Shown here: one piece after another, positions 10,855-58,037 of the stretch
Position numbering within the stretch: the stretch's first letter is position 1
Layout: every line of letters begins with the position of its first letter
Source of the DNA: an uncultured Chloroflexia bacterium
GTDB lineage: Bacteria; Chloroflexota; Limnocylindria; Limnocylindrales; CSP1-4
Length of the DNA: 64,000 nucleotides
Direction of reading: 5' to 3'
NCBI GenBank assembly: GCA_963715295.1
Contig: CAVQRP010000007.1
Coordinates: 37,330-101,329, forward strand
Made by a program: the position numbers and the translations under genes
The notes under the pieces: generated by a model
What the model saw: only the letters and a program-made list of their open reading frames with translations
What the model was told of the DNA's origin: nothing
Databases searched by the model: none

Positions 10855-11347
10855 CGACATCCGGCGACTCCGCCGGGCGGTCCAGGTCGCCGGCCACGCT
10901 CGCGAAACGGGAAATCACCCCTTCGGTGCCGTGCTGGTCGGGGCCACCGGCGAGGTCCTGGCCGAGGCCGGCAATACGGTCGTGACCGAGCGCGACGTCA
11001 CCGGCCACGCCGAACTGAACCTGGTGCGGCTGGCGTCGCGCGCGTACCCCGACGATGTGCTCGCTGGTTGCACCCTCTACAGCAGCGCGGAGCCCTGCGC
11101 CATGTGCGCCGGCGCTATCTACTGGAGCGGTATCGGACGCGTGGTCTATGCCCTTGCTGAACACGACCTGCGCCGCATCACGGGAGCGGATGCGGAGAAC
11201 CCCACCATGAGCATGCCCGTCCGTGCGGTACTGGCGGCGGGACAACGCCCCATCGAGGTGGCTGGCCCGGCCCACCTGCCGGAGGCGACCGCCGTCCACG
11301 ACGGCTTCTGGGATCCCGAGCGCGAGGCCCGGAGCGGGGGGCGCTAG
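10844..11347 (+). CDS. Nucleoside deaminase (CMP/dCMP-type zinc deaminase; TadA/guanine-deaminase-like)
   Basis: HAELNLV ... SAEPCAMCAGAI zinc-binding motifs. GTG start overlaps the cupin gene end. Confidence 0.8.
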   Translation: MDADDIRRLRRAVQVAGHARETGNHPFGAVLVGATGEVLAEAGNTVVTERDVTGHAELNLVRLASRAYPDDVLAGCTLYSSAEPCAMCAGAIYWSGIGRVVYALAEHDLRRITGADAENPTMSMPVRAVLAAGQRPIEVAGPAHLPEATAVHDGFWDPEREARSGGR

Positions 11348-13142: not shown

Positions 13143-13220
13143 ACATCGGACGCCCGTGGGTCGGGCACCTTCAATGGTACGAGGGCGTTCAGCCCCCGAA
13201 CCTGTCCCGCGATTCGCGAT

Positions 13221-14447: not shown

Positions 14448-14617
14448 CTCACCCAGTATCGCCCCCAGCCCGCCTGACCGACCGGCGCCCTCGCGGCAGC
14501 ATGGAGTCTGAATGTCCCGTCGCAGCGTGGCCGGCGGCCCTCGCGGCGGGCAGCGGTATGGCCTCACGCTTGCGGTCCACCCCTGGGCTGCAAGGAATGC
14601 GTCGGAACGTGAGACAG

Positions 14618-15835
14618 ATGGCCATGTCACTGCGCCGCCATCCAGTCCTGGCCGCGCTGCAGCTCGTGGTCGGGGTGGATCTCGTGGTCCTGGCCATCAC
14701 CTCCGACGTCAGCACCGCGGCGCGGCTCGTGGGTGCTGCGGTCGCCATCGCCCTGACCGCCGTCCTCGTCGCGCTCGTGGCCAACGAACGGCCGGTACGC
14801 CGGGGCTCGGCGGCCCTCGTCGGCGGCCTCATCGGCTTCAGCCTCGGTGCCGGCATCGGACCGGTGTGGCTGACCACGACGGGTCTATCGATCGTGGCTA
14901 TCGCCTCGACGGCGGCACTCGTGGCAGGGCTGGCGCTCCTTGTCGCGGCCGGATGGATCCTTATCCGGGCGACCCCACGCTGGTGGCGCCTGGCCGCGCT
15001 GCCGGTCGCCTTCGTGCTGCTCCAGTTCGTGGTCATCCCGCTCGCCGGTGCTGCCTATGGCACGCACCCACCGCAGACACCGGTGGAAGAGCCCAAGCCC
15101 CCGGCCGCCAGCCTGGTCACCTTCGACACTGCCGACGGAGTCGCCTTGGGGGCCTGGTTCACGCCGGGCGACAACGGCGCCACCATCATCCTGCTCCCCG
15201 GGTCAGGCGGGGCGAAGGGGTCGACGGTCGAACACGCGGCCCGCCTCAACGAGCACGGCTACGCGACGCTGGCGCTGGATTCCCGCGGGACAGGCGACAG
15301 TGGCGGGATCGGCAACGCCTGGGGCTGGCACGGCGTGACCGACGTGGCCGCTGCGCTCTCGTGGCTCCACGCCCGGCCGGAGGTCGATCCCCAGCGCATC
15401 GGCGTCCTCGGCCTCTCGATGGGCGGCGAGGTAGCCATCACCGCGGCCGCCACCGACGAGCGTCTGCAGGCCGTGGTGGCCGAGGGCGTGAGCGCACGTG
15501 TCCCCGCCGACATGGGCTATCTGCCGAACGACGTGACCGGCATCATCCAACGCTGGGATGGCGAGCTGATGTGGGCGCTGGCGGGTGTCATGACATCGGC
15601 GTCTCCCCCCATCCCCCTGAGCGAGGCCGTGGCCCTCGCGACTCGCGTTCCGGTGCTGCTCATCGTTGGCAGTGCCGCGGATGAGGCAGCGGCCGCTCCC
15701 CGGTTCGAGCGCGCCGCTCCCGCGCTGGAGACCTGGAAGCTCGCAGATACACCGCACATCCAGTCGCTGGCCCTCCACCCCGACGAGTGGGATGAGCGGG
15801 TCGTCGGCTTCCTGGACGAAGCCCTGGGCACCTGA
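14618..15835 (+). CDS. Membrane-anchored alpha/beta hydrolase
   Basis: About 5 N-terminal TM helices, then an alpha/beta hydrolase fold with GLSMGG nucleophile elbow. Confidence 0.7.
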   Translation: MAMSLRRHPVLAALQLVVGVDLVVLAITSDVSTAARLVGAAVAIALTAVLVALVANERPVRRGSAALVGGLIGFSLGAGIGPVWLTTTGLSIVAIASTAALVAGLALLVAAGWILIRATPRWWRLAALPVAFVLLQFVVIPLAGAAYGTHPPQTPVEEPKPPAASLVTFDTADGVALGAWFTPGDNGATIILLPGSGGAKGSTVEHAARLNEHGYATLALDSRGTGDSGGIGNAWGWHGVTDVAAALSWLHARPEVDPQRIGVLGLSMGGEVAITAAATDERLQAVVAEGVSARVPADMGYLPNDVTGIIQRWDGELMWALAGVMTSASPPIPLSEAVALATRVPVLLIVGSAADEAAAAPRFERAAPALETWKLADTPHIQSLALHPDEWDERVVGFLDEALGT

Positions 15836-25969: not shown

Positions 25970-26045
25970 TGGTGAGCCGGCTGGGATTCGAACCCAGGAC
26001 ACGAGGATTAAAAGTCCCCTGCTCTGACCGCTGAGCTACCGGCCC
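25970..26045 (-). tRNA. tRNA-Lys (UUU)
   Basis: 76-nt cloverleaf with anticodon loop CUUUUAA, T-loop TTCGAAT and encoded CCA. Confidence 0.9.
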
Positions 26046-43257: not shown

Positions 43258-43635
43258 ATGTCCTTCCTTCGCAGCCTGATGGGCGGCGGTGTCCCCGCCG
43301 TGACCGTGCAGCAAGCCGCCGAGATGCAAGGCACCGATGGCGTCGGCGCCCTGATCATCGACGTGCGCGAGCCCAACGAATACACGCAGATCCGCGCCAA
43401 GGGTGCCGTGCTGCTGCCGCTGGGCCGCCTCAACAGCTTCGTCAAGGAGCTGCCTCGCGACCGCGAGCTGCTGATGATGTGCCGTACCGGTGGCCGCAGC
43501 CAGAACGCGACCCAGTTCCTGCAGGCGCAGGGGTTCGAGAACGTGACCAACGTCAGCGGCGGCATCGTGGCCTGGCACGCCGCCGGCTTGCCCACCACCT
43601 CGGGCGATCCAGAGCCGGGCGAAGGCGCCTTCTAG
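43258..43635 (+). CDS. Rhodanese-like sulfurtransferase domain protein
   Basis: Active-site loop CRTGGRS. Start lies 2 nt after the DUF2203 stop. Confidence 0.85.
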   Translation: MSFLRSLMGGGVPAVTVQQAAEMQGTDGVGALIIDVREPNEYTQIRAKGAVLLPLGRLNSFVKELPRDRELLMMCRTGGRSQNATQFLQAQGFENVTNVSGGIVAWHAAGLPTTSGDPEPGEGAF

Positions 43636-43917
43636 GAGCGACCCACCGCCGTCGAGCCGGGCCGACTCCTGGAGCGGGGCGGCATCCTGCTTCGGCGTGG
43701 CCTCAGCGGGCGCGAGCCTCAGCTGCGCACGCTGATGGCCGATGACACCGCTGACCCAGCCTTCGCGATCTACCGTCGCGAACCGTAGAGGCAGCGGGAT
43801 GGTGCCACCGGCCAGCCCGTGGGCGAGGACGCAGGGGCTGTCGCCCGGCGCTGCGAAGAGGAGGAAAGGAGCCTGCAGGTCCGCTGAGCGACGGTCCGGG
43901 GCTCAGCGGGCGGATAG

Positions 43918-45411
43918 CTACGAGCGGTAGCGCTCCTCCGGTGGCATGGGCAGCCGGCCACGTGAGAGCTTCGACAGCACGCGCTTGCTCGACTCGGGCC
44001 GCGAGAGCGCGATGCCGATGATGATCAGGATGACGAAGTTGGTCATACCCACGCCCATGGCGTTGAGGTAGCCCAGCTGCTGGCCGACCTCACCCTGGAT
44101 CGCCAGTGCCGGGATGGTGGCGCCGGCGATCCCCAGCTGGAAGAAGGGCGGGCGCGGGGAGATGGCTGCGCGCAGCGACCCATCGGTGGGTCCATCGGGT
44201 GTCTCTCCGCCGAACACGAAGGCCTGTGACCCCACACCGGCGATCGGCGCGTCGGCGGTCGCGACCGGCAGGTCGGTCTGCTCGAGGCTCTGCCAGCCGT
44301 CGTAGTTGCCGGTGGTCGTGTCGGGCACGGCCCACAGGACCGACGTCTGCGGCAGACCCTCGGCATCGAAGCCACCGATGACATAGATGGCACCGTTGGC
44401 GTTGAAGACGCTAGCGTCGGTGAGCGCCTGCGGCAGAGCCTGGTCCGCGGGGGCGACGCCCCAACCGACCAGCTGCCCGGCTTCGTCGGTGGCCGGCTCG
44501 CCGTCGACCAGCTCCAGGCGGAAGACGGTGTCGGTGGCGCCATCGGGGCCCTCGCCGCCGACCACGTACATGAAGTCAGCGATGGACGAGGCCACCATGC
44601 CCGCGCGCGGCTCCGGCAGGGCCAGGCCTTCCAGCGGCGCCCATGGCTGCAGGGTGTCACCGGCTCCTTCGACCCAGGCGATGTAGGCGCCGTCGGTGGG
44701 CTCGCCGTTGACGTCCCGGCCACCCACCAGCACGAAGCCGCCGGTACCGAGGATGACCCCGGCGCCACTCAACGGCTGCGGCAAGGTCAGCTCTTCGGTG
44801 CGGTTCTCGCCGTCGGCAAGCACCCAGCCGGTGAGCACGCCTTCTTCGATGACGCCCTCGTAGACGGTGTCGGTCGGGGCACCGGCGCCATCGAGGCCGC
44901 CGATGAGGTAAGGGACGCCGGAGAACGTGGCCAGGGCGGCGTCCGTGCGCGGCGCCGGTAGTGCCGGTCCGCTGGTCCAGCCGGTCAGGTTCCCCTCCTC
45001 GGTCACATTCGTGACAAGGACTTCGTCGCTGGCGCTGCCATCCACGTCGCCGCCGATGACGTACACGGCGGTACCCGACTGGTACACCGCCGAGCCAGCG
45101 CGCGCTGAGGGCATCGCCAGCTGCGCCGGCGATGTCTGCCACGGCAGGGTGGCACCAGCAGGTGCGGGACAAGGCAGGTTTTCATTGTCGGCCGGGCACA
45201 GGTTGACGATCGAGGCGAAGTTGTAGCCCACCGAGATGGTGGTGCTGGTGGTGAAGTAGTAGGCCCAGTTGGGAACCACGCCGAGCATGAAGATGATGAT
45301 CAGGAACCAGAAGGCCGCCTTCAGCCCGGCCCAGGTCCAGCCATCGGCGTCGAACAACCCGAAGGCGGCGCGGCGGCGGGTGGCGCCCTGCGGGAGTGCT
45401 TGCTGTGCCAC
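43918..45411 (-). CDS. Kelch-repeat beta-propeller membrane protein (last gene of cytochrome bc operon)
   Basis: N-terminal TM, about 6 Kelch-like blades (YVIGG, YLIGG, FVLVGG, YVVGG, YVIGG, FVFGG) and a C-terminal TM. Confidence 0.7.
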   Translation of the reverse strand: MAQQALPQGATRRRAAFGLFDADGWTWAGLKAAFWFLIIIFMLGVVPNWAYYFTTSTTISVGYNFASIVNLCPADNENLPCPAPAGATLPWQTSPAQLAMPSARAGSAVYQSGTAVYVIGGDVDGSASDEVLVTNVTEEGNLTGWTSGPALPAPRTDAALATFSGVPYLIGGLDGAGAPTDTVYEGVIEEGVLTGWVLADGENRTEELTLPQPLSGAGVILGTGGFVLVGGRDVNGEPTDGAYIAWVEGAGDTLQPWAPLEGLALPEPRAGMVASSIADFMYVVGGEGPDGATDTVFRLELVDGEPATDEAGQLVGWGVAPADQALPQALTDASVFNANGAIYVIGGFDAEGLPQTSVLWAVPDTTTGNYDGWQSLEQTDLPVATADAPIAGVGSQAFVFGGETPDGPTDGSLRAAISPRPPFFQLGIAGATIPALAIQGEVGQQLGYLNAMGVGMTNFVILIIIGIALSRPESSKRVLSKLSRGRLPMPPEERYRS

Positions 45412-45426
45412 GTTCCTCTCCTGCCC

Positions 45427-46620
45427 CTAGCCCTGGATCACGATGTTGCCGTGCATGGTCGTGTAGTGACCCGGCACCGTGCAGGCGAACTGCAGGTTGG
45501 CGCCATCCTCCGGCACCGTCCAGGTGATGGTCTGCTCACCGCTCTGCCAGGTCGGGATGCCGTCGTCCGTCTCGGCATTGGGTGTGCTTAGTGCGTCCGC
45601 TGCTCCGATCCAGAAGTTGTGGTCGAAGCCAGCCACGTTGTCGACGACGAACTCGATGGTCTCGCCGGGCACCACGTCGATCTGTGGGACGACGGCGCCC
45701 GACTCATCGGTGAACTGCAGGTTGGACGTGGCCTGGAGGCGGATCACACGCGGCGCATCGGTGGACCCGCCATCGATGGCCACCGGCGTGGCAGCGGGGT
45801 CGACCGGTGGTGGCGTAGCGGCCGTGGCATCACCGCCGCCGCTGACACCACCGGGGTTCTTCCAGCAGTCAGGCACGGGCGTGTCCTCGGGGCCGGGCTG
45901 CCAGTTCGGATCACGCCAGCCAGCGACCTGCTCCGGCGGCGGGGCCTCTGCCGCCGCTTCGCCATGCGACGCCGGCGCGTGTTCGAAGATGATGTCGTTG
46001 CTCGCATTCAGCCAGACGATGAGCTCCTCGACCTGGCGATAGTTGAGCGGGCCGTTGGGCTGCAGCCAGGGCGCCATCAGGCTGTTGGGGTCGCCACACA
46101 CGTAGCGGCCGCCGACGGTGAGCACGTTCTCGAGGTAGCCGGGGTTGAGGTGACCCGTCCCGGAATCGCCCGCAGGCGTGAGCACGTTGTACAGCTTGGC
46201 CTGGTCGTTGAGTCGCGGGCCGATCCCACCCTGGCCTTCAGCGCCGTGGCAGGTGGCGCAGTTGGCGATGTAGAGCTCGTAGCCGCGCGCGACATCGGTG
46301 ACGTACTGGGCGTCGGCCTCCGCCGCCAGGCGGCCCTCGGTGCCGAGGGCCGGCACGCCGCTTTCGTAGAACCAGTAGACCGGGATGAAGAGCGCCACGA
46401 CCAGGATGGCCAGGAAGACCACGTTGCGAGCGTTGGCGCTTTGGCGAACGATCTGCGCGGAGCGCTCCTCGGTCAGCTCGACGCTGTGCGCGCGTGGCCC
46501 GGCGGAGAAGCGCTCGACGTCGCGGCTCTCACCCTCGACCGGGACCAGGGGCGATTCCGGCCGTCCGACCTCGTCAGACCCCCGGGGCGCGAGCTCCTTG
46601 CCGCCCTTGTCCTCGCTCAT
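45427..46620 (-). CDS. Membrane-anchored cytochrome c - cupredoxin (type-1 copper) fusion protein
   Basis: TM helix, CATCHG haem c motif, then a plastocyanin-like site HNFW ... CTVPGHYTTMHG (His, Cys, His, Met ligands). Confidence 0.8.
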   Translation of the reverse strand: MSEDKGGKELAPRGSDEVGRPESPLVPVEGESRDVERFSAGPRAHSVELTEERSAQIVRQSANARNVVFLAILVVALFIPVYWFYESGVPALGTEGRLAAEADAQYVTDVARGYELYIANCATCHGAEGQGGIGPRLNDQAKLYNVLTPAGDSGTGHLNPGYLENVLTVGGRYVCGDPNSLMAPWLQPNGPLNYRQVEELIVWLNASNDIIFEHAPASHGEAAAEAPPPEQVAGWRDPNWQPGPEDTPVPDCWKNPGGVSGGGDATAATPPPVDPAATPVAIDGGSTDAPRVIRLQATSNLQFTDESGAVVPQIDVVPGETIEFVVDNVAGFDHNFWIGAADALSTPNAETDDGIPTWQSGEQTITWTVPEDGANLQFACTVPGHYTTMHGNIVIQG

Positions 46621-47285
46621 ATGCAGCCCGTCGGCGACTTGGCCGGGATGAGACCAGGCTGGCCCAGCGCCACCGGCAGCGAGCCGAGCGAGATCGTGCT
46701 GGTATCGACGACGAGCTGACCATCCTGCACGCTATGCGGGAAGCGATCGAGACCGCGCGGCGCAGGGCCCAGCTCCTTGACCTTGGTGCCCAAGCGGTCG
46801 TAGCGCGAACCGTGGCAGGGGCATTCGAACCAGTAGTTCGACTCGCAGAAGTTGGGCTTGCAGCCCAGGTGTGGGCACTTCTGGTACATCGTCCACACGT
46901 TGGTGACGTCGCCCTTGCCGTCAGACGACTCACCGTTCAGGAAGCCCAGGTTGGGGTCCTGGAGGACGACGAAGGTGCGTGCGGCGGGGAAGTACGAGGG
47001 CGCACCGTCCTTGAGCGTGAGACCCGCGACCTCCGGGTTATCGGAGACGGTCTGGAAGTCGCCCAGGTTGATCTGGCCACCGAAGCCGCGGGCAAGGTTG
47101 GGCCAGAGGAAGCCCAGGGTGCCGGCACCGACCTCGAGCAGCCATAGCGCGACCGCCGCACCGATGGAGCGACGGATAAGCTGCCGACGCGTCAAGCCAC
47201 CGGTCCTGCCGCTGCGCATCTCACGCAGGACGGGCTCGGTCAGTGCTCCGGGCTCTTGCGAACGAGTCAGCTTCCAGTTGCCCAT
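46617..47285 (-). CDS. Rieske [2Fe-2S] subunit of cytochrome bc/b6f-type complex
   Basis: Tat motif RRQLIRRS plus CPHLGC...CPCHGS cluster boxes. Confidence 0.9.
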   Translation of the reverse strand: MGNWKLTRSQEPGALTEPVLREMRSGRTGGLTRRQLIRRSIGAAVALWLLEVGAGTLGFLWPNLARGFGGQINLGDFQTVSDNPEVAGLTLKDGAPSYFPAARTFVVLQDPNLGFLNGESSDGKGDVTNVWTMYQKCPHLGCKPNFCESNYWFECPCHGSRYDRLGTKVKELGPAPRGLDRFPHSVQDGQLVVDTSTISLGSLPVALGQPGLIPAKSPTGCI

Positions 47286-47292
47286 CGTGCCC

Positions 47293-47934
47293 CTACAGTG
47301 CGAAGAAGAAGCCCTCCCACGGCATCGTCCAGGCGTAGCCCGGGCCGCGGAAGAAGGCGCCCAAGAAGGTGATGGTCAGGCCAGCACCCATGATGATGGT
47401 GAAGAGCATCACGCTGGTCTTGCGGTCGGACGGACGAGGCGAGCCGCCGTCGCCCCGGGGGCCGCGATCGATGAACGGGATCAGTGCCGCACCCACGAGG
47501 ATGACCGTCGGGGCCAGTACGCCGGCGACGGTGGGGTGGAAGTAGGCCAGCAGCTCCTGCAGGCCCACGAAGTACCAGGGTGCCTTGGCCACGGCGGGAG
47601 TGACGTTGCCGTTGGCCAGCTCCTCCAGCGGCGCGTTGATGAAGATGCCCATGAGGATCAGGAAGATGCTCATCATGGCCGCGGCGAAGAACTCGATCGA
47701 GAGCAGGTGCGGCCACGTCATGACCGTATCGTCCGGTTCCTTCTGGACGCGGACGACGGCGTCCTGTTTGACCAGGGCCAGCAGCCGGTAGGGCTTGGCG
47801 GCCATGGGCACGCGCTGCTTGTCGATCTCCGTCGTGCGCCGCTCCGGCGGCGACGCAGGCAGCGTGCTCCGTCGCTCCGGCGTTGACGTCGGGGCTGAGG
47901 CGGGGACCTGGGGGTGCTTGGTCTCTTCGCTCAT
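47293..47934 (-). CDS. Cytochrome b C-terminal-domain subunit (subunit IV / PetD-like)
   Basis: Three TM helices and a PEWY-like region (APWYFVGLQELL). Confidence 0.8.
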   Translation of the reverse strand: MSEETKHPQVPASAPTSTPERRSTLPASPPERRTTEIDKQRVPMAAKPYRLLALVKQDAVVRVQKEPDDTVMTWPHLLSIEFFAAAMMSIFLILMGIFINAPLEELANGNVTPAVAKAPWYFVGLQELLAYFHPTVAGVLAPTVILVGAALIPFIDRGPRGDGGSPRPSDRKTSVMLFTIIMGAGLTITFLGAFFRGPGYAWTMPWEGFFFAL

Positions 47935-47949
47935 GGGTGCTCGTTCGGT

Positions 47950-48678
47950 CTACAGCGGACCGCTGATACCTCCGTCCTTGCGAATGCGCCAGAAGTGCAC
48001 GGCCAGGAACAGGGCCGCCACCAGCGGCATGAGGATCACGTGCAGGACGTAGAAGCGTAGGAGGGTGTTCTGACCCACCTCGATGCCACCCAGCAGCAGC
48101 AGCTGGCTGGGCGTGTTGAACAGCGGCGCGAAGGTGGCCATGTTGGTGCCGATGGTGATGGCCCAGAAGGCGATCTGGTCCCACGGCAGCAGGTAGCCGG
48201 TGAAGGAGAGGAAGACGGTCAGCAACAGCAGCACCACGCCGACCACCCAGTTGAACTCACGCGGTGGCTTGTAGGCGCCGTGGTAGAAGACACGCATCAT
48301 GTGCAGGAAGACGAAGAACACCATCAGGTGGGCGGCCCATCGGTGGATGTTGCGAGCCAGCAACCCGAAGGGAACCTCTGCCTGGATGCGCAGGATGTCC
48401 GAGTAGGCCTGGGTGGCCGAGGGCACATAGAAGAACATCAGGTAGACGCCCGTCACGGTCAGCACCAGGAAGAAGAAGAAGGAGAGCCCGCCCAGGCAGA
48501 AGGTATAGGCGAACTTGACCGCGTGCTGCCGCACTCGCACCGGGTGCAGGTGCAGGAACACGTTGTTCATCACGGCCATGGCGCGCGATCGCTCGTCGTT
48601 GGGGTAGGGCTGTCGGAAGATCGACCGGAACGCCGCGCTACGGCGGATCGACTGATCGACGCGCTCGAGGAAGCTCAA
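47950..48678 (-). CDS. Cytochrome b6-like subunit (N-terminal four-helix haem b domain, PetB/QcrB-like)
   Basis: Haem-ligand His pairs in helices B and D (HLHP...H and [16 protein letters not shown]). TTG start overlaps the upstream stop. Confidence 0.9.
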
Positions 48679-50546
48679 CGCCGTGTCACCGTCATCGAGG
48701 AATGACCCCCTGCCTCTGCCTGGTTACCGACACCAGCCAAGCCCAGCTGGGTGTCCCGGTACGACTCCTTGTAGAGCCTACCGTCCTCACTGATCTCCTG
48801 CATCTCGAAGCGTTCCATGGTGATGGCATCGTAGGGGCAACGCTTCACGCAAAGCGCACAGCGGATGCAACGTTCCTCGTCGAGGACCATGGCCGCGCCC
48901 TGGGTCCAGCCGTAGCCGTCGACCAGCTCGGGCAGCGCTCCCTCGGATCTCATCTGGTTCACGTCGATCATGTGGATGACGCCTTCGGGGCACACGTCCG
49001 CACAGGCGCCGCAAAGCACGCAGCGGAAACCATCGAACCAGATGTTGTAGTTGCACATCAGGCAGCGCGTGGACTCGGTGACGGCCTGGTCGGTGGTGTA
49101 GCCCAGCTCGGAGATGGTGCTGAAGTTCACCTTGGGGTCAGCCGAAGGCAGGCGCGCGTCCACTGGCAGGACGGGGATGTGCTGACGCGGCAGGACGTCA
49201 TACAGCTCGGGCATGTCGTGGCGCCAGGAGCTGACGATGCGCACGTTGGCGTCCACCGCCACCGTCGAGCGACCCGACAGGTAGCGGTCGATGGCATAGG
49301 CGCACTTCTTGCCGTGGCCGGCCGATTCGATGAGCGTCGTGGGGCCGGTCACGAAGTCGCCGCAGGCGAAGACGCCGCGCACGTTGGTGGCGTAGGTGCC
49401 GGGATCGACACGCATGCGGCCACGATTGATCTGGAAGCTGGCATCGACGGGCAGGAACGTGTTGTCGGCGGCCTGGCTGACCGCGGGGATGACGGTCTGC
49501 GCCGGCACCACGTACTCGGAACCCTCGATGGGCACCGGGCGGCGGCGACCGCTGGCGTCAGGCTCGCCCAGCTTGTTGCGCACGAACCGGACGCCGCTGA
49601 TGTTGCCGTTCTCATCCCCGATGATCTCCACCGGACTGACGAGGAACTCCATGCTCACACCTTCGCGCTCGGTCTCGCCCAGCTCCTCCTCGTCCACGAC
49701 CAGCTCGGAGCGCGTGCGGCGGTAGGCGATGGTGACGTTCCTGGCGCCGTGCCGCAGGCTCGTACGCGAGCAGTCCATGGCCGTGTAGCCGCCGCCGATG
49801 ATGACGACGTCGGTGCCGACCGCGACCTCCTCACCGAGGTTGGCGCGCTTCATGAAGTCGACGCCGTACTGGATGCCGTTGAGATCGTTGCCGGGGACGT
49901 CGAGTGGCACCGCGTTCATGGCGCCGGCGCAGATGGCCACCGCGTCGTACTGCGCCTGCAGCTCCTCGAAGGTGATGTCGCGTCCCACGCGGACGTTGAA
50001 GCGGAACTCCACCCCCAGGCGCTCGACGAGCCGGAAGTCCATCTCGATGGCTTCGCGCGGAAGACGGAACGCCGGCACGCCCACCAGCAGCGTGCCGCCG
50101 GCCATGGGCAGCTCGTCGAAGACGGTGACCTGGTGGCCGGCCACGGCCAGCTCGCGCGCGACCGCCAGGCCGGCGGGCCCGGCACCCACGACCGCCACGC
50201 TGGTGTCGCGGGGGGTGATGAGCGGCATCTCGTCGGGGATGCCCGACTGGGCGTGCCATTCGACGAGGAAGCGCTTCATCGCGCGGATGGCCAGGGGCCG
50301 ATCGATGTCGCCACGCCGGCAGGCGCGTTCGCACGGTGCCGAGCACACGTAGGCGCACATGGCGGCGACCGGGTTGGGTTCACGCGAGAGGATGTAGCCC
50401 TCCTCGAAGCGACCCTCCGCCGCGAGGTTCAGGTAGCCGCGACAGTTGGTGCCCACCGGACACGCTTCCTGGCACTCGATGTTGCACTGCAGCCAGGACG
50501 CGTCCACAGGCTGGACGAGGAACTCCTGGCCGGTGTCGATGACCAC
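48675..50546 (-). CDS. GltD-like NAD(P)H-dependent FeS flavoprotein with extra C-terminal 2x[4Fe-4S] ferredoxin domain
   Basis: N-terminal Cys clusters, FAD and NAD(P) Rossmann motifs ([26 protein letters not shown]), and C-terminal CLMCNYN...[12 protein letters not shown] and [12 protein letters not shown]. Confidence 0.8.
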
Positions 50547-50760
50547 GCTGGATCGAACCCCCTCACGACGGGTGTTGGGACTGACTGGTCGGCCTCATGG
50601 CCCGAGTGCGAGCGAATTTACCATCCGAGGGCCGAGCCGTGCGTGATCGATGAGCGCAGATATACGACTTTGGCCGCGGCCGTTCGCTTCCGGGCGCCGC
50701 CGCAGCCAGCGATCTCCAGCCGGGACCTTCTGCCTGTTGACCACGCCCCTGCTGCCCCGT

Positions 50761-51941
50761 ATGTTCCTGCTCATGAGCACACCTGCGGGGGTGTCCGAAG
50801 CGCATCCTGCCGACGGCTGTGCCGAGATGCGGGCCGAGGTCGGCCGGACCTGTCGCGAGGCGCACGAAGCCAGGGCCGCGCATGAGGCCGCCGCTGCCAA
50901 CACACACGAGCTGCGGCGGGAGCTCGTCGCCAGCCAGCACCGGCAAGCGGAGGCGGCTGTCGCGGCCGACCCCCAGTTCCGTAGCGCCGACAAGAAGGCC
51001 GCTCGTGACACCTACCAGCTGGCGCGATACGCGGCCCAGTCGGAAGACGAGATCCGCGAGGCCACGGCAGCCTGGGCCCAGGCCGTCGATCGCATCAACC
51101 GTGCCGGTCGACTGGCCCAGCGCGCGGCGGCGCAGGCCAAGGCTGCCGTCGCCAGCGTGGAATCATCGCTGCACGAGGCCGAGCAGGCGGAGCGAAGTGC
51201 GCGCATCACGGCCGAGCGGGCTGAAGGCGACTGCCTCGATGCTCGCGTTCGCCTGGCCGCGTGCGAGGAAGAAGCGGCCGCTCCGGCGGAGGCAGCCAGC
51301 GCGACCGTGTTCGAGCCGCACGCGGCTACCGGAGGCCACGCCATCGCCGTCAGCCCCACCGAGCGCATGTCACCCCTGGTCATCGAATTGATGGTCAGCG
51401 CCGACCGACGCGCGCTCGAGCTGGCGGCGAACGATGTCGCGGCACGCACCGGCTGCTCGCCGGCGGAGGCGCAGCTGCAGCTGCAGGAGCTGGTCGATGC
51501 CATCGTCTCGGCCGCGGCCGAGGAGGGCTTCCTCATCTTCGACAGCGACCATCGCTTCTGGGCCACGCTCACCTTCGAAGAGGCGCGCGATGTCATCGCC
51601 GCGCTGGCGCGGCTCGGCTTCAGCTTCGCCCCCAGCGAGGGCTGGTACGCGGGACGCGCGCCGGCGCCGGCGGACCTGTCGATGGCACTGGCCTACGCCG
51701 GACTGGACGCGCGCAACATGCGCGACCTGCCCGACAGCGAGGATCTGCGCCAGTTGCCCGGCTCCATCGGTGTCGATGGGCGAGCCTACCTCGCGGCCCG
51801 GGCACCATCCCTGGCCATGGACCAGCTGGTGAGCGCCCTGGGCGTCGCGCCGAGCCGCTCGAGCTGCTGTGGAACGAGTGGGGCCAGGTGCGTCCGGTGC
51901 TGTTGACCGACCGGCACGACCTCGGCAGCCTGCCCGGCTGA
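50761..51941 (+). CDS. Hypothetical Ala-rich coiled-coil protein (C-terminus probably frameshifted)
   Basis: About 390 aa with high GC3. The last ~40 aa likely continue in the frame of ORF 51261..51941. Confidence 0.45.
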
Positions 51942-52873: not shown

Positions 52874-53365
52874 TCAGGCTGAGGCTGCCGAGCGGAGGGT
52901 CGCCAGGACCTCGGCGGCGTGGCCCTCCACCTTGACCCTGGGCCACACGTGCGCGACGCGGCCCTGGGGATCGATGAGGAACGTGCTGCGGCCGATGCCG
53001 AAGTACGTCTTGCCGTAGTTCTTCTTCTCGACCCAGACCCCGTACCGCTCTGCCACGGCATGATCAGGATCGGCCAGCAGGGGGAAGGTCAGCCCGTGCT
53101 CGGCCTTGAACCTGGCCTTGGAGTCGGCGTCGAGGACACTGACGGACCAGACCGTGGCCCCTGCGGCCTCGAAGTCGGATGTCAGGTCGCGGAACTCGCA
53201 GACCTCGGTGGTGCAGCCAGAGGTGAAGTCCTTGGGATAGAAGAACAGCACCACCCAGCGGCCGCGCTCGGCGGCCAGCTCGCGGACGGTGCCGGCGTCG
53301 TCGGTGAGCGAGAACGCCGGAGCAGGCTCGCCGACGGCGGGGAGGGTGGGAGCGTTATCGGTCAT
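52874..53365 (-). CDS. bcp: Peroxiredoxin Bcp (thiol peroxidase)
   Basis: FYPKDFTSGCTTE peroxidatic Cys motif, 163 aa. Confidence 0.85.
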   Translation of the reverse strand: MTDNAPTLPAVGEPAPAFSLTDDAGTVRELAAERGRWVVLFFYPKDFTSGCTTEVCEFRDLTSDFEAAGATVWSVSVLDADSKARFKAEHGLTFPLLADPDHAVAERYGVWVEKKNYGKTYFGIGRSTFLIDPQGRVAHVWPRVKVEGHAAEVLATLRSAASA

Positions 53366-53399
53366 GCACGGAAGGGTAGCGCTGTCGCGTCGCGGATGA

Positions 53400-54423
53400 C
53401 GTGGGCACTGCCCGGCTGCACGCTCAGTCCGGATCGGCTCCCCCGGCGCCGGGAGCTCGCCCTCGCGGGCTTCCACGTGGAGGCGGGGGGCATCGGGGAC
53501 GTCCACCACGAGCAGGACGTGATCGCCGCGGAAGCGTCGCGCGGATACGTGCCCCGCGATGGGACCGGCCGGATCGGCCACCAGGCCGGCGGGACGCAGC
53601 ACGACCAACACCTCTTCCCCGGTCCTGGTGGCGCGCGGGGCCGGATCGGCCACCTCGGCGGGCAGGTCACCCCAGGGCGTGTGCAGCACACGCTGGTCCA
53701 GCACACCCGACGTGATGTTGCGAAAGCCCAGGAAGCGGGCCGTCCACTCGTTGGGCGGTCGCGTCCAGAGCTCCTCGGGCGTGCCGTCGGCAAGGGTCCG
53801 CCCGGCTCGCAGCAGGACCACGCGGTCGGCCACCGACAGGGCCTCGTCCTGATCGTGGGTGACGTAGATGACCGTGAGGCCCAGCTCACGGAAGATCCTC
53901 GCAGCTCATCGGGCAGGCGCTCGCGCAGGGCCCGGTCGAGCGACCCCATGGGCTCGTCCAGCATCAACAGCCGCGGTCGCGGGGCCAGGGCGCGTGCCAG
54001 TGCCACCCGCTGCTGCTCGCCACCGGACAGCTGGGAGACCGGGCGCCGTTCAGCGCCGGACAGCCCCACCAGCTCGAGCAGCTCGGCTACCCGACGCCGG
54101 ACAGCCGCACCGCCCTCCCCTTGCATCCGTAGGCCGAAGGCGATGTTCTGGCCCACGTCCCGGTGCGGGAACAGGGCGTAGTCCTGGAACATCAGCCCGA
54201 CCCCACGCTCGTGTGGCGGCACTCCAGCCAGGTCGCGGCCGGCGAGCCGGATCGAGCCGCTGCGTGGCACCTCCAACCCGGCGACCACCCGTAGCAGCGT
54301 CGACTTGCCGCCGCCGCTGGGACCCAGCACGCACAGCAGCTCAGCGCTCGACACCGCCAGGCTGACGTCCTGCAGCACATCGACCTCGGCGTAACCGGCG
54401 CTCAGACCCTCGACCTCGAGCAT
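53400..54423 (-). pseudogene. ABC transporter ATP-binding protein (thiamine/Fe3+ importer type, TOBE C-domain), at least 2 frameshifts
   Basis: Walker A GPSGGGKST, LSGGEQQRVALARAL and LLMLDEP in frame 1. H-loop and TOBE regions are in frames 2/3. The 3' end is approximate. Confidence 0.7.
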
Positions 54424-54430
54424 GTGCCTC

Positions 54431-56128
54431 CTAGAACGGCTGTGGCCCGCTGCCGCGCAGGCGCTCGATGAGCAGGACCGCGGTCGCGGTGAGCAGCATC
54501 AGCACGACCGCCAGCGCCATGGCCGTGGCGAAGCTGGCGGCACCGGGCTGGCCCAGCAAACGGTAGATGGCCACAGGGATGGTGACGCTGTCGGGCCGCG
54601 CGATGAAGAGCGTGGCGCCGAACTCGCCCAGCGACACCGCGAAGGCGAAGCCGGCCCCGACCAGGGCGGCGCGGGCAAGGATGGGCCCATCGACCTCGCG
54701 CCAGGCTCGCGCCGGCGGCGCGCCCAGGACCGCCGCGGCCTCGCGCAGGCGGTCGTCGATGGAGCGGATGACGGGCACCACCGCGCGCAGCACGAAGGGC
54801 AAGGCGATGAGCGCGTGGGCGATGGGGATGAGCAGCACCGAGGTGCGCAGGTCCAGTGGCGGCGAGTCGAGCGAGACCAGGAAGCCGAAGCCGACGATGA
54901 CCGCCGACGTGCCCAGCGGCAGCATGATGAGAGCATCCAGCCCGCGCGCCAGCCAGCCGCGCCGGTAGCCCACCGCCGCCGCCGCGAGCAGGCCCAGCGT
55001 GCCGGCGATGAGCGTGGTGATGGCGGCGAAGGTGAGCGAATCGGCCACGGCCTGCAGCGGCGCAGCCGACAGGCGCAGGCGCGGATCGGCCTGCAGCAGG
55101 GCCGCGTATGCCCCGACGCCGTAGCCCCCGGGTCCGGCCAGCGAGCGCTCCAGCAGCATCAGCAGAGGCGTCAGCATGAAGACCAGCGTGGCGCCCAGGA
55201 TGAGCCAGACCACGTTGCGCTCGCGGCCGGGACGCGGCGGGCGAGCGGTCTCGGCCGAGGCGCGCAGACGCTGCTGGAACGCGAGGTGCTCCTGCGCGCG
55301 AGCGCTGCCGAGCAACAGCACGAAGACGCCCACCATCTGCAGGATGGTCAGCGCCGCTGCCGTGGGCAGGTCCAGCAGGATGGCCGTCTGGCGGTAGATC
55401 TCCACTTCCAGCGTGGTATCGCGCGGACCGCCCAGCAGCAGCACCACGCCGAAGGAGGTGACGGTGAACAGGAACACGATCGAGGCGGCCGAGATGACCG
55501 CCGGGCGCAGTAGCGGCCAGGTGACCTCGCGGAAGGCACGCCAACCGCTGGCACCCAGCATGCGCGCCGCCTCTTCCGTGCGTGGATCGACGTGCGCCCA
55601 TATGCCGCCGACGAGCCGGATGATGACCGAGACGTTGTAGAAGACATGCGCCACCAGGATGGCCCCGACCGATCCGTCGAGGCGCACCTGCGGGATGTCG
55701 GGCCCGAAGATGACCTCGGCCAGGGCGTTGACGGGGCTGCGGGGGCCCAGCAGCGCCAGGAAGGCGGAGCCGACCACGACCGTGGGCAGCACGAACGGCA
55801 CCACCGTCAATGCGCGCATGACACGCTTGCCGCGGAACTCGAAGCGAGCGAACACCCACGCCACCGGCAGCCCCAGCAGCAGCGTGAGCAGCGTGGAGAG
55901 GCTTGCCAGCGCCAGCGTGAAGATGACCGTGTCCAGCACGAACGGCTGCTGCCACGCCTCCACCAGGCCGCCGGGCGCGACGGCACCGTCGGGCGCGATG
56001 CCGAGCGCCAGGATGTTGGCCACCGGCCACAGGAAGAAGAGCCCCAGGAACGCCAGCGGCCCCAGCGCCAGCAGCAGGGCCCAGCGACGGCTCAGCGCAG
56101 GACGATGTCGGTCCACTCGCGGATCCAC
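54431..56128 (-). CDS. ABC transporter permease, fused two-domain (ThiP/FbpB type, ~12 TM)
   Basis: 565 aa with two MetI-like domains, each with an EAA-type loop. Confidence 0.85.
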   Translation of the reverse strand: MDPRVDRHRPALSRRWALLLALGPLAFLGLFFLWPVANILALGIAPDGAVAPGGLVEAWQQPFVLDTVIFTLALASLSTLLTLLLGLPVAWVFARFEFRGKRVMRALTVVPFVLPTVVVGSAFLALLGPRSPVNALAEVIFGPDIPQVRLDGSVGAILVAHVFYNVSVIIRLVGGIWAHVDPRTEEAARMLGASGWRAFREVTWPLLRPAVISAASIVFLFTVTSFGVVLLLGGPRDTTLEVEIYRQTAILLDLPTAAALTILQMVGVFVLLLGSARAQEHLAFQQRLRASAETARPPRPGRERNVVWLILGATLVFMLTPLLMLLERSLAGPGGYGVGAYAALLQADPRLRLSAAPLQAVADSLTFAAITTLIAGTLGLLAAAAVGYRRGWLARGLDALIMLPLGTSAVIVGFGFLVSLDSPPLDLRTSVLLIPIAHALIALPFVLRAVVPVIRSIDDRLREAAAVLGAPPARAWREVDGPILARAALVGAGFAFAVSLGEFGATLFIARPDSVTIPVAIYRLLGQPGAASFATAMALAVVLMLLTATAVLLIERLRGSGPQPF

Positions 56129-57141
56129 TCCTCGCGCCCGGCGTCGATGGCCGCAGGCTGGAGGCTCAAAGGCGCCGAGGGCACCAGCGCGTGCTGTTCG
56201 AAGACCTCCGGCAGGGCCACGTCGGACCGCGCCGGGTACACGTACATGGCCAGCGGCAGCTCGGCCTGCACCTCCGGCGACAGCAGGTAGTCGATCAGCG
56301 CAGCGGCCAGCTCCGGTTCTCTGGTGCCGCGCAGGATGCCGGCGAACTCGACCTGGCGAAAGCAGCCCGCGTCGATCGCCGCCGTCGGGGATTCGGTCGC
56401 ATCCGGGCCGGCCCCCAGGAATTCGGCGGCCGGACTGGAGGCATACGACACCACGATGGGCAGGTCGCCCTCGCCGGAGCCGCCGGAGAAGCGTGAGAAG
56501 TACGCCCCTTCCCAGTCGGCCGCAACCGCCACGTCGTTGGCACGCAGGTCGGCCCAGTACGCGGCCCAGCCGGTCTCGGGATCCTCGCCGAAGTGCGCCA
56601 CCGTCGCCAGCAGGAAGGCCAGGCCGGGTGACGAGGTCGCCGGATTCTCGACCACCAGCTGACCGGCCAGCGCCGGGTCGGCCAGGTCTTCCAGGCTCGT
56701 CGGAAGGGGCAGACCGTCCTCACCGAAGGCGGAACGATCGATGTTGAGACAGACATCGCCGAAGTCGATGGGCGTCACGCGGTGCTGCGGGTCCAGCTGC
56801 AGCTCGGGGGGCACGCTGGCCAGCGCCTCCGATCTATACGGCTCGAACAGGTCGGCCTCCAGGGCGCGTGAGAGGAAGGTGTTGTCGACGCCGTAAAGGA
56901 CGTCGGCCAGCGGCCGGTCGGCAGTGAGGATGGCCTGGTTGACGACGGCGCCGGCATCGCCCGCCGGCAGCAGCTTGACGTCAACGTCGTGTGCCGCCTC
57001 GAACGCCTCCATCACCCCGGGTGGCAGCAGGAACGAGTCGTGCGTCAGCAGCGTCAAGGTGCGCTCCTGTGCCGCCAGCGGTGAGGCGCTCAGCAGCACC
57101 AGCCCGGCGGCGAGCGTGGCGACGATGCGGGTGCGGATCAT
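56092..57141 (-). CDS. ABC transporter periplasmic substrate-binding protein (thiamine/Fe3+ family)
   Basis: Signal peptide and an SBP_bac_1 fold, 349 aa. Confidence 0.85.
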   Translation of the reverse strand: MIRTRIVATLAAGLVLLSASPLAAQERTLTLLTHDSFLLPPGVMEAFEAAHDVDVKLLPAGDAGAVVNQAILTADRPLADVLYGVDNTFLSRALEADLFEPYRSEALASVPPELQLDPQHRVTPIDFGDVCLNIDRSAFGEDGLPLPTSLEDLADPALAGQLVVENPATSSPGLAFLLATVAHFGEDPETGWAAYWADLRANDVAVAADWEGAYFSRFSGGSGEGDLPIVVSYASSPAAEFLGAGPDATESPTAAIDAGCFRQVEFAGILRGTREPELAAALIDYLLSPEVQAELPLAMYVYPARSDVALPEVFEQHALVPSAPLSLQPAAIDAGREEWIREWTDIVLR

Positions 57142-57836
57142 GCCTGGTCCTCCTGTCGCTCTGCGTTGCGGTCGGTGTGGACCAGCAAGAGTCGGCCACG
57201 TCGGCTGGACACCCGGGCGCTGCGCCCGAGCAGCTCATTGGAAAGGCCTCGCGATGGACCCAGGCTGAGGGTCTCGTCTCGGAGCGCGAAACGAAGCCCC
57301 TCGGTGCTGACGCCGGTCACGTTGCGGTCGAGCGCGAAGAGAGAGACGAAATCACCCGGCTGGCCCTCGATGCCTGCCTCGGCGGGGCCGTCGTGGCTGC
57401 CACTGCGCCAGATGCGCGAACCGTGCCCGGCGATGACCACCTCGACCCCGTCCAGGCGCGGATCGGCCAGCAGCAGCAGGTTGGCCAGACTGTGCTCGGG
57501 CCGCGTCTCGCCGAGGGCGCCCAGGATGGTGAGGCGATGGTGCCCAGCCTCGAGCGCCGTGAGCAGGCACAGCTCCATGTCGCTCTCGTCCTTGTCCGGC
57601 GACGCCACCCGCAACTCCACGCCCATCGATTCGAGCCGCGCACGGTCGGCGCTGCTCAACGAGTCGAAGTCGCCCACGACCACATCGGGAACGAGGCCGG
57701 CCTGGAGGACCCGCGCGGCGCCGCCATCGGCCGCGATCAGGCTGGGACTGGAACCGGCCCCGGCGACCAGCTCGGCGAGCAGCGCCTGGTCCACGTCACC
57801 GTCGGCGATGATCAACGCGTGAGTGGGCCTGGCCAT
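57138..57836 (-). CDS. Thiamine pyrophosphokinase
   Basis: ALIIADGD ... VVVGDFDS TPK catalytic motifs. First gene downstream of the TPP riboswitch. Confidence 0.8.
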   Translation of the reverse strand: MARPTHALIIADGDVDQALLAELVAGAGSSPSLIAADGGAARVLQAGLVPDVVVGDFDSLSSADRARLESMGVELRVASPDKDESDMELCLLTALEAGHHRLTILGALGETRPEHSLANLLLLADPRLDGVEVVIAGHGSRIWRSGSHDGPAEAGIEGQPGDFVSLFALDRNVTGVSTEGLRFALRDETLSLGPSRGLSNELLGRSARVSSRRGRLLLVHTDRNAERQEDQA

Positions 57837-57878
57837 GGACGTCGAAGCCTCCGTCTGGACGGGACGGAGGCTGCGTCA

Positions 57879-57966
57879 TCGACTCCCTTCGCCGGTACGA
57901 ACCGGATCAGGTTCCGAGGGTCTGCGGCTGTCCCGCACTCTCAGCGCCGCGAGGGCGCTCCCCTGT
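57879..57966 (-). promoter_or_regulatory. TPP (thiamine pyrophosphate) riboswitch, THI-box aptamer
   Basis: Minus-strand RNA: GGGGAGCGCCC...CUGAGA...ACCCUCGGAACCUGAUCCGGUUCGUACCGGCGAAGGGA. It is followed by the hairpin GCCUCCGUC-ccgucca-GACGGAGGC (57847..57871), which sequesters the SD GGAGG 11 nt before the AUG. Confidence 0.85.
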
Positions 57967-58037
57967 CCCATCTGTGGTTGTATCGAGGATGCTACACCAC
58001 GGGCCGAGCAGGCCCGATGTCATAGACTCCGGGTGCC

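Follow-up and report, generated by a model that had tools for sequence, protein, structure and literature searches.

A six-gene operon conserved in Limnocylindria and predicted to encode an APWY-clade Rieske/cytochrome b6 complex with an NAD(P)-linked flavoprotein, a cytochrome c-cupredoxin fusion and a Kelch membrane protein

Earlier work on Rieske/cytochrome b complexes that include an NAD(P) oxidoreductase has centred on anammox bacteria, with their six to eight or more c haems, their hydroxylamine oxidoreductase (HAO)-like enzyme and their internal organelle. In these organisms, the complexes Kuste4569-4574 and Kustd1480-1485 combine a Rieske/cytochrome b core with such an oxidoreductase (Hauser et al., 2025; PMC12954380). 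In the present study, we analyzed a cluster of six minus-strand genes, named A to F, in a 64,000-nt stretch of DNA (hereafter, the window) from an uncultured soil bacterium of the Chloroflexota class Limnocylindria (GenBank assembly GCA_963715295.1, contig CAVQRP010000007.1, positions 37,330 to 101,329 of the forward strand). The cluster is predicted to encode a related complex with a much smaller set of redox carriers on its outer side.

According to Hauser et al. (2025), who cite complexome profiling of Kuenenia, the anammox flavoprotein co-migrates with a core of split cytochrome b6, subunit IV and Rieske protein; related anammox-type complexes were also described by Kartal et al. (2013) and de Almeida et al. 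(2016), as cited in the same paper. AlphaFold3 models of the anammox complexes contain four iron-sulfur (FeS) clusters that form one linear chain to flavin adenine dinucleotide (FAD), with hops of no more than 15 A (PMC12954380). Kartal et al., as related by the same authors, proposed that quinol bifurcation drives NAD(P)+ reduction, and the potentials of the anammox Rieske proteins, +303 and +335 mV, are argued to fit NAD(P)+ reduction (PMC12954380). Dibrova et al. (PMC5600118) described a short cytochrome b, 'subfamily G', that in planctomycetes 'and many other cases' occurs together with large oxidoreductases that bind NAD(P) and are rich in cysteine, and in their view the four-helix cytochrome b anchors cytoplasmic oxidoreductases. 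The APWY clade of cytochrome b was described by Kao and Hunte (2014; PMC4122944), with Chloroflexi among its members, all of them uncharacterised, and was suggested to run in reverse on the basis of a p-cresol cluster of Geobacter. The ExtOPQ genes of Geobacter lie in a multihaem and porin setting, with no GltD-like gene listed in the ext cluster (PMC5877670). Whether complexes of this kind bifurcate electrons to NAD(P)+, are fed by NAD(P)H or run in reverse has been an open problem since about 2011-2013. We found no literature description of the Limnocylindria six-gene operon, nor any paper in which this exact six-gene complex had been characterised.

The genes were called from an ORF (open reading frame) listing and translation of the window. 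They are co-directional and together span 43918-50546, as follows (TM, transmembrane):

48675..50546, minus strand: gene A, soluble NAD(P)-linked FeS flavoprotein of 623 aa with a GTG start (Pfam, NCBIfam and PDB matches)
47950..48678, minus strand: gene B, four-helix cytochrome b6-type subunit of 242 aa with a TTG start (PF00033, 2.6e-46)
47293..47934, minus strand: gene C, subunit IV-like protein of 213 aa with 3 TM helices (PF00032, 25 bits against a cut-off of 20.7)
46617..47285, minus strand: gene D, Rieske [2Fe-2S] protein of 222 aa with one TM helix (PF00355, 3.7e-07; TIGR01416, 2.9e-12)
45427..46620, minus strand: gene E, membrane-anchored monohaem cytochrome c with a type-1 copper cupredoxin, 397 aa (Cytochrome_CBB3 and Cytochrom_C matches)
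43918..45411, minus strand: gene F, Kelch membrane protein of 497 aa (PF24681, 58.4 bits against a cut-off of 50)

These six genes form one operon. At the A/B junction the genes overlap by 4 nt, so that GTTGA contains both the TTG start of B and the TGA stop of A, and a second 4-nt overlap (ATGA) lies at the D/E junction, where the ATG start of E overlaps the stop codon of D; the remaining gaps measure 15 nt (B-C), 7 nt (C-D) and 15 nt (E-F). A first-pass annotation of the window, made from its letters and ORFs, had described the genes as tightly packed and the flavoprotein as translationally coupled to cytochrome b, and both descriptions were borne out, as were all six of its gene and domain calls when set against Pfam, NCBIfam, motifs and structure matches. 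Gaps of 15 nt or less leave no space for internal promoters, and a promoter and terminator consensus scan inside the cluster returned nothing beyond chance, so that separate promoters or terminators for the GltD-like gene A or the Kelch gene F, which that annotation had allowed for, did not emerge. The G+C content at third codon positions (GC3) is 0.84-0.91 for all six genes, the G+C content of the window is 65-73%, and the genes flanking the operon are unrelated and lie on the opposite strand. Two features border the operon:

50547..50649, minus strand: upstream intergenic region of 103 nt, common with a divergent ORF, the presumed promoter region
43881..43909, minus strand: 9-bp perfect hairpin (CCGCUGAGC / GCUCAGCGG), beginning 9 nt past the stop codon of F

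A GAGG Shine-Dalgarno-like site precedes the GTG start of A; the promoter scan called no sigma-70-like site on the minus strand upstream of A, and the promoter is presumed to lie within the 103-nt region. The hairpin 3' of F is a possible terminator, with a fold z-score of only -0.4, indistinguishable from shuffled sequence at this G+C-rich composition.

That the arrangement is more than chance follows from the recurrence of the same order in related loci and not from the statistics of a single window. Searches with A, E or F led to a class core of 14 loci (L001-L011, L057, L083 and L084), which includes the freshwater genus Limnocylindrus. The order A-B-C-D-E-F is identical in 14/14 of them, as far as each contig reaches, and F directly follows E in every locus that extends that far; the GltD-like and Kelch genes thus adjoin the bc genes in every related class-core genome sampled, a point on which the first-pass annotation had staked its proposal. 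The 4-nt overlap of A and B is retained in most Limnocylindria loci, and the motif APWY was found in 12/12 class-core loci scored for it. Identity to the window proteins is 78-85% for A, 82-91% for B, 68-88% for C, 47-71% for D, 38-58% for E and 38-53% for F. The class-core loci also have flanks in common: one flank holds a thiamine ATP-binding cassette (ABC) transporter, AhpC, PIG-L and an uncharacterised divergent ORF, and the other holds rhodanese, DUF2203 and an aminotransferase. The best 120 homologues of A are 82-93% identical, and the named ones among them belong to 'Candidatus Limnocylindrales/Limnocylindria' or to metagenome-assembled genomes of Chloroflexota; in a library clustered at 50% identity, the A family is reduced to a single full-length sequence, with the nearest others at most 48% identical.

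The flavoprotein A has 22 Cys and no TM helix. Its Pfam matches are Pyr_redox_2 (1.6e-27, residues 116-409), Fer4_20 (2.8e-17) and Fer4_7 (5.8e-11), and three parts can be distinguished:

50241..50492, minus strand: A residues 19-102, two [4Fe-4S] sites of the dihydropyrimidine dehydrogenase (DPD)/GltD type (Fer4_20; Cys 21, 25, 29, 35, 64, 68, 72 and 76)
49266..50213, minus strand: A residues 112-427, FAD and NAD(P) binding domains (GAGPAG at 121, GGGYTAMDC at 251, YRR at 275)
48807..49064, minus strand: A residues 495-580, ferredoxin-like 2x[4Fe-4S] tail (CxxCxxCxxxC at 509 and 560; C495, C498)

Four FeS cluster sites, recognised here from motifs alone, are thereby provided by the eight N-terminal Cys and the two CxxCxxCxxxC motifs. 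In an 18-sequence alignment (A1), C38, C42, C81, C85 and C89 (alignment reference numbering) are invariant, and the tail cysteines are invariant both there and in a 6-sequence alignment (A2). The ferredoxin tail occurs in all bc-linked homologues of A, with matches reaching approximately query residue 580. It is an internal 2x[4Fe-4S] domain, and a role as a wire toward the haems of the membrane is more likely than one in exchange with soluble ferredoxin; of the 'NAD(P)H/ferredoxin-linked' partner that had been proposed from the sequence, the NAD(P)H link stands and the ferredoxin link is the less likely part. The YRR and GGGxTAxDC motifs resemble what we take to be NADPH-type sites.

The nearest solved chains to A are NfnA 9n5u (1e-110), 9bov, 8oh5_C and NfnB/NfnI 5jca_L, followed by GltD 2vdc_G and DPD. 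Against NCBIfam, A scores 428 bits with PRK12771, under the cut-off of 516, and falls far under the cut-offs of the GltD models (TIGR01317, 229.5 against 447.7; TIGR01318, 283.2 against 483). Two identities were considered and rejected, since scores lie below the cut-offs and partner genes are absent: a true GltD, for which no gltB is present in the cluster or its immediate flanks, and a true NfnB, for which no NfnA partner (a [2Fe-2S] cluster and second FAD) is present in the same region, only the NfnB-like fold being held in common. In locus L084, gene A (4076-5947) was called as three ORFs of 89, 450 and 98 aa; as the neighbouring genes are intact, frameshifts in the assembly are a more probable cause than a genuine split.

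The features of a b6-type Rieske/cytochrome b core (His pairs, CxGG Cys, a separate 3-helix subunit IV and a twin-arginine (Tat) Rieske protein) are all present in B, C and D. In B, the haem b ligands are H112/H126 and H213/H228 with the b6-type spacing H-x13-H and H-x14-H, Cys61 within CLGG (the CxGG motif) is the predicted site of covalent haem cn, and the C-terminus is b6-like. B scores 292.8 bits with the NCBIfam ExtP model (cut-off 290) and 212.6 bits with cytochrome b6 PRK03735; C scores 47.3 bits with ExtQ, for which the cut-off is 150. The quinol oxidation (Qo) motif of C, at residue 118, is APWY instead of PEWY or PDWY, and the alignment has a near-invariant cytoplasmic stretch of about 45 residues ahead of the first helix (approximately residues 37-73). 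An invariant Glu lies in the subunit IV segment WPHLLSIEF, at a position that, by comparison with Firmicutes, may resemble the one discussed as a haem cn ligand in low-potential complexes. D contains CPHLGC at 137, CPCHGSRY at 155 and the Tat motif TRRQLI, and the box CPCHGSRY holds both the Ser and the Tyr of the 'high-potential' signature. The cluster contains no cytochrome f (PetA)-like gene; instead, E combines a class I cytochrome c with a cupredoxin.

From its cytoplasmic N-terminus, E consists of one TM helix, the class I cytochrome c, a Pro-rich linker and the cupredoxin, and its PDB sequence matches are QcrC-like haem domains and auracyanin A. The automatic JGI names of its orthologues, 'cupredoxin-like copper-binding protein / mono/diheme cytochrome c', describe the same two parts:

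45991..46338, minus strand: E residues 95-210, class I cytochrome c domain (C121-A-T-C-H125; Met182)
45430..45765, minus strand: E residues 286-397, azurin/auracyanin-type blue-copper domain (H334, C380, H385, M389; loop CTVPGHYTTM)

E has a single CxxCH motif, and C121, C124, H125 and M182 are invariant among 30 sequences. The C-terminal domain is modelled by AlphaFold2 (AF2) with a predicted local distance difference test score (pLDDT) of about 90, and a Foldseek search with it returned azurin at 4.9e-07 and the auracyanins 6kol, 2aan and 1qhq at about 1e-06, with a probability of 1.0 throughout; the four copper ligands are kept in 10/10 class members aligned. The model and the ligand set indicate a type-1 (blue) copper cupredoxin of the azurin/auracyanin group, predicted to bind copper. 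A CuA centre like that of oxidase subunit II was considered and rejected on account of the single Cys and the azurin-type ligand spacing. In some close relatives, E is approximately 550 aa long and carries two tandem blue-copper domains (P0414, at 8001-9656 of L083, and also P0417), each of the type DHNF...CTVPGHY..M, which would make a haem-Cu-Cu chain. We found no literature description of a bc complex in which a fused cytochrome c and cupredoxin serves as c subunit.

F has one TM helix at each end (residues 24-55 and 441-470) and, between them, a propeller recognised from the AF2 model and Foldseek:

44164..45147, minus strand: F residues 89-416, six-blade Kelch beta-propeller

The mean pLDDT of the F model is 78 and that of the propeller is above 85; the Foldseek neighbours of the propeller are the Kelch domains of NS1-BP, LZTR1, Keap1 and KLHL proteins (approximately 2e-18, target-normalised TM-score about 0.8). 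Judging from the positively charged N- and C-terminal tails, the propeller is predicted to face the outside. F contains no His and only two Cys (72 and 81), so that it has no plausible metal or cofactor site; both Cys are invariant, lie in a CPxxNxxLPCP neck and are probably disulfide-bonded. The same residue counts, together with structural neighbours that are Kelch domains of the protein-binding kind, led us to reject a catalytic role like that of the galactose oxidase, NosZ, cd1 or methylamine dehydrogenase (MADH) propellers. Agreement with the window residue averages 88% for E residues 36-66 and 83% for each of F residues 1-27 and 417-450, compared with 61% for the propeller. This membrane-proximal conservation in C, E and F is what would be expected if they were packed together as subunits of a single membrane complex, and the conserved cytoplasmic N-terminal segments of these three proteins are candidate docking sites for A, which has no helix of its own. 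On balance, the sequence pattern suggests that F is probably a non-redox accessory or scaffold subunit of the complex.

To place the operon beyond its class, species genomes of GTDB were scanned with a profile of GltD-like proteins bearing the ferredoxin tail (alignment A2), and the 80 nearest loci were taken. In 41 of these 80, representing at least 8 phyla, Rieske and cytochrome b genes lie directly downstream on the same strand. Besides the Limnocylindria core, the 41 loci include a second Limnocylindria/Chloroflexota lineage, Ardenticatenales, many Acidobacteriota, Verrucomicrobia, Victivallales, Zixibacteria, Calditrichaceae, Eisenbacteria, Abyssobacteria and the anammox genus Brocadia, with whose protein (locus L053) A is 40% identical. 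The Qo motif, scored in 43 bc-linked loci (within L001-L020, L022 and L027-L078), is APWY in all of them with one variant, AAWY (L062); among the same loci, the haem cn motif CxGG is kept only in Limnocylindria, in all of its loci, and in Brocadia and is absent from Acidobacteriota-type loci. The identities of A and B co-vary across bc-linked loci (Spearman rho 0.79, p = 8.5e-10), which points to long joint inheritance and argues against repeated chance adjacency. Together, the adjacency in 41/80 loci, the co-variation and the link to APWY suggest that A is functionally tied to cytochrome b.

The composition of the operon varies outside the class core. The usual order outside Limnocylindria is A-Rieske-cytochrome b-subunit IV, with a subunit IV that has five helices (five TM helices were counted in L027, L053 and L062) or is fused to cytochrome b, and the loci of Acidobacteriota, Brocadia and others have cytochrome partners with 6-10 CxxCH motifs. 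In the Brocadia sapporoensis locus L053, a 657-aa ORF (11723-13696) unlike all six window proteins lies between the flavoprotein and subunit IV genes. The second Limnocylindria/Chloroflexota lineage (L012, L013, L015, L018 and L022; at about 10000-15400) has an A protein 51-52% identical to that of the window and the order A-B-C-D, followed by a dihaem cytochrome c and then by membrane-protein ORFs (4 TM helices in L015), with no Kelch protein and no cupredoxin. Neither F nor the cupredoxin part of E had a BLAST match outside the class core in the scanned loci. The proposal that the flavoprotein and the Kelch protein are not parts of described complexes thus divides: it stands for the Kelch protein, for which we found no paper describing such a subunit of bc complexes, and it is overstated for the flavoprotein, which is known from the anammox complexes and subfamily G and occurs in the 41 of 80 loci. 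What is lineage-specific is the cytochrome c-cupredoxin fusion and the Kelch protein; the coupling of a flavoprotein to bc genes is already known and widespread.

These observations are best explained if the operon encodes an APWY-clade Rieske/cytochrome b6 membrane complex with an NAD(P)-dependent FeS flavoprotein on its cytoplasmic side. The core can be read from the sequence: it comprises the four-helix cytochrome b, which has sites for a pair of b haems and for covalently bound haem cn, the three-helix subunit IV with APWY and the Tat-exported Rieske protein. On the outside, as the domain order and the conserved ligands suggest, one electron from quinol at Qo would pass through the Rieske protein to the haem c of E, then to the type-1 Cu of E and on to a terminal oxidase. 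On the inside, as homology to the anammox complexes with their AlphaFold3 models suggests, the other electron would travel through haems bL, bH and cn to the four [4Fe-4S] clusters of A, first those of the ferredoxin tail and second the GltD-type pair, and from there to FAD and NAD(P). In the net reaction, two quinols would be consumed, one NAD(P)H would be formed and two electrons would enter the copper/oxidase branch; the wire would be reversible. F, without a cofactor, would pack its membrane-proximal segments on the core and hold its propeller at the outer face, next to the domains that carry the Rieske cluster, the haem and the copper.

We regard the wiring of such a complex, which is drawn by analogy, as very probably correct, and the idea already put forward from the sequence, of an NAD(P)H-linked module that oxidises quinol or works in reverse and has a c-haem to blue-copper relay, gains support from both homologues and motifs. 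Quinone-based bifurcation would be the likeliest net reaction, at slightly below an even call; it is favoured by the Ser/Tyr Rieske signature of D, the anammox Rieske potentials, a high-potential outlet of the azurin/auracyanin type and the NADPH-like motifs of A. Taken as a whole, direction included, the explanation appears to us evenly poised between right and wrong.

Several points weigh against it. Even in the anammox members, the function is a proposal. With assumed values of approximately -74 mV for menaquinone, +275 mV for the acceptor, -340 mV for NADP and 150 mV for the membrane potential, we estimate that each turnover of NAD(P)+ reduction would be slightly uphill; to become feasible, it would require the quinone pool to be reduced and the acceptor to be oxidised. 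The b6-like C-terminus of B, its Cys61 and the subunit IV Glu look like a normal b6-type pocket for haem cn and quinone reduction (Qi), and a pocket that appears intact would allow an ordinary Q cycle. Modules of the GltD, DPD and AegA type usually serve as inputs that oxidise NAD(P)H. AF2 gives a poor model of the cytochrome c domain of E, with a pLDDT below 50, for which reason only the cupredoxin domain was used structurally. Finally, the assignment of F as a subunit draws only on synteny and the pattern of conservation.

The alternative that survives best turns the same wire around. A could be an electron input, with NAD(P)H delivering electrons through FAD and the four FeS clusters to haems cn/bH and to quinone at Qi, and a normal Q cycle making the complex a self-contained NAD(P)H:cytochrome c/copper oxidoreductase, an arrangement that can be compared with ferredoxin-NADP reductase (FNR) bound to the chloroplast b6f complex. 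Such a path would be downhill at every step, the homologous modules of GltD, DPD and AegA/YgfK are NADPH-oxidising inputs, the b6-like C-terminus, Cys61 (CLGG) and the conserved subunit IV residues suggest an intact cn/Qi pocket, and Dibrova et al. saw in the four-helix cytochrome b just such an anchor. However, it would be wasteful to respire NADPH, the nucleotide whose binding sites the motifs of A resemble, neither the Ser/Tyr Rieske signature nor the non-acidic APWY would be required, and the anammox Rieske potentials, which are the sole measurements, are read by their authors as favouring NAD(P)+ reduction. We consider an input role for A a real possibility, and on the whole a doubtful one.

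Reversal of the entire complex is quite improbable. Here, electrons from the two high-potential carriers of E, haem c and Cu, would meet those of NAD(P)H, arriving by way of the b haems, at the APWY Qo site and reduce quinone, as the suggestion of Kao and Hunte from the Geobacter p-cresol cluster would imply, and the presence of APWY in 43/43 GltD-linked loci (one as AAWY) agrees with it. Nevertheless, the genes beside the operon encode no periplasmic donor system of high potential, an aerobe would better spend cytochrome c/copper electrons on an oxidase, and the idea is based on one uncharacterised case.

Flavin bifurcation by A is very improbable. In this scheme, A would act like NfnB and send electrons from NADPH both to the membrane haems and quinone (exergonic) and to soluble ferredoxin (endergonic), in the manner of FixABCX/EtfABCX. 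The best solved relatives of A are indeed NfnB-like modules (9n5u at 1e-110, 8oh5_C and 5jca_L), and A holds two separate [4Fe-4S] pairs, one N-terminal and one C-terminal, but the same fold is non-bifurcating in GltD and DPD, the operon contains neither an NfnA-like partner nor a ferredoxin gene, and the anammox models show the four clusters as one linear chain to FAD. Least probable of all, and hardly credible, is an ordinary menaquinol:cytochrome c reductase made of B-E with A and/or F merely co-transcribed, perhaps for assembly or redox maintenance, since the fact that the complex in Limnocylindria is known from genes alone, the want of cofactor ligands in F (no His, two Cys) and its absence from the second Limnocylindria lineage and all other phyla scanned are outweighed by the adjacency of A in 41/80 loci, its co-variation with cytochrome b, the translational coupling and the co-migration in Kuenenia from the literature and, for F, by synteny that is invariant across the class and by best-conserved parts that are membrane-proximal.

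An APWY-clade complex with a cytoplasmic FeS flavoprotein, as preferred here, would place the anammox-type core, with a minimal outlet of one haem and one copper, in a common lineage, abundant in soil and fresh water and described in the literature as aerobic. The comparative data join three labels, 'APWY clade', 'subfamily G' and anammox R/b complexes, and the Limnocylindria operon offers a simpler candidate for biochemical and structural work. It is conceivable, if on present evidence unlikely, that the operon is the main or only complex III of Limnocylindria, performing an oxygen-driven, quinone-based bifurcation that yields NAD(P)H from quinol, perhaps in many Acidobacteriota as well, and that the Kelch protein holds the copper relay or docks the oxidase. 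If this were true, a widespread and unrecognised NAD(P)H route would exist in ordinary aerobes and would not be an anammox peculiarity, and the Kelch protein would be a new kind of structural subunit.

The results also carry a warning for annotation. Public records name orthologues of A as 'glutamate synthase' or 'formate dehydrogenase' subunits, and B just passes the ExtP model with its 'selenite/tellurite' name. None of the ExtHIJKLMNS genes is present in the operon or its flanks, and carrying over the ExtP label would be a mis-annotation. These names are unfit for the proteins described here, and together they are likely to be systematic mis-annotations.

Other features of the window lie outside the operon:

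43258-43635, plus strand: rhodanese gene, downstream flank of the operon
50650-51906, plus strand: Ala-rich ORF of 418 aa, divergent, upstream flank of gene A
57867-57974, minus strand: thiamine pyrophosphate (TPP) riboswitch (Rfam RF00059, 70.9 bits)
5004-5078, minus strand: tRNA-Met (CAT)
25970-26045, minus strand: tRNA-Lys (TTT)

The Ala-rich ORF, whose start codon may be further downstream, has no Pfam or NCBIfam family match and no TM helix. It was considered as an assembly factor and set aside on those grounds and for its Ala-rich composition; its position directly upstream of A is kept in at least 10 relatives at only about 28-40% identity. The riboswitch lies upstream of genes for thiamine pyrophosphokinase, a solute-binding protein, a permease and an ABC ATPase (53362-57836, minus strand), and this riboswitch/thiamine block adjoins the bc operon in L001, L002, L083 and L084. 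A 433-aa protein encoded at 3417-4718 on the minus strand has a C-terminal vitamin K epoxide reductase (VKOR) domain, of a quinone-dependent disulfide-forming family, and may hint at the quinone used. At 8470-9633 on the plus strand, a glucose/sorbosone dehydrogenase-like beta-propeller (PF07995, NHL repeat) could be a periplasmic dehydrogenase and is positionally unrelated to the operon.

Among known systems, the anammox complexes share with this operon a split b6-type cytochrome b with CxGG, a subunit IV-like protein, APWY, a Rieske protein with the box II Ser and a homologous GltD-like FeS flavoprotein with four cluster sites. They differ in that their subunit IV has 5 TM helices as opposed to 3 here, which leaves the extra b haem proposed for anammox without an obvious site in the Limnocylindria protein, and in that hexa- and octahaem cytochromes and an HAO-like protein stand in place of the one c haem and one blue copper found here. 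Their gene order, Rieske-b-A-...-IV-multihaem, also departs from A-B-C-D-E-F, to which the Kelch gene is added, and the Limnocylindria host lineage is described as aerobic in the literature, with no nitrogen-oxide chemistry implied. The APWY clade and subfamily G are alike in APWY, the split cytochrome b, the membership of Chloroflexi and the neighbouring NAD(P)-binding, cysteine-rich oxidoreductase, whereas the cytochrome c-cupredoxin fusion, the Kelch protein and the Limnocylindria operon do not appear in those surveys.

The b6f complex and the Firmicute QcrABC complex have the same four-helix cytochrome b spacing, haem cn Cys, b6-like C-terminus, 3-helix subunit IV and Tat Rieske protein, and in b6f a copper protein, plastocyanin, is likewise the acceptor. 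The b6f complex also carries an NADP-linked flavoprotein, FNR, on its n-side, the stromal side. In both, however, PEWY or PDWY takes the place of APWY, and the cytochrome f of b6f is absent here; in contrast to FNR, the flavoprotein is an operon-encoded FeS enzyme of the GltD/NfnB type, and the copper domain is fused to a haem domain and tethered to the membrane. The Geobacter ExtO/ExtP/ExtQ genes are similar in bringing Rieske, cytochrome b and membrane-protein genes together in one cluster, and B lies just over the ExtP cut-off, whereas the ExtQ cut-off is missed and the operon contains no porin, no rhodanese ExtH, no selenocysteine cytochrome and no multihaem ExtM/N/S. As for the outlet, the copper domain of E has the cupredoxin fold, the His-Cys-His-Met set and the C-x4-H-x3-M loop of auracyanin and azurin, auracyanin being a respiratory and photosynthetic carrier of Chloroflexota, and its cytochrome c domain is most like the actinobacterial dihaem QcrC. 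In Limnocylindria, unlike in either of these systems, the two are fused in one membrane-anchored polypeptide that replaces cytochrome c1 or f.

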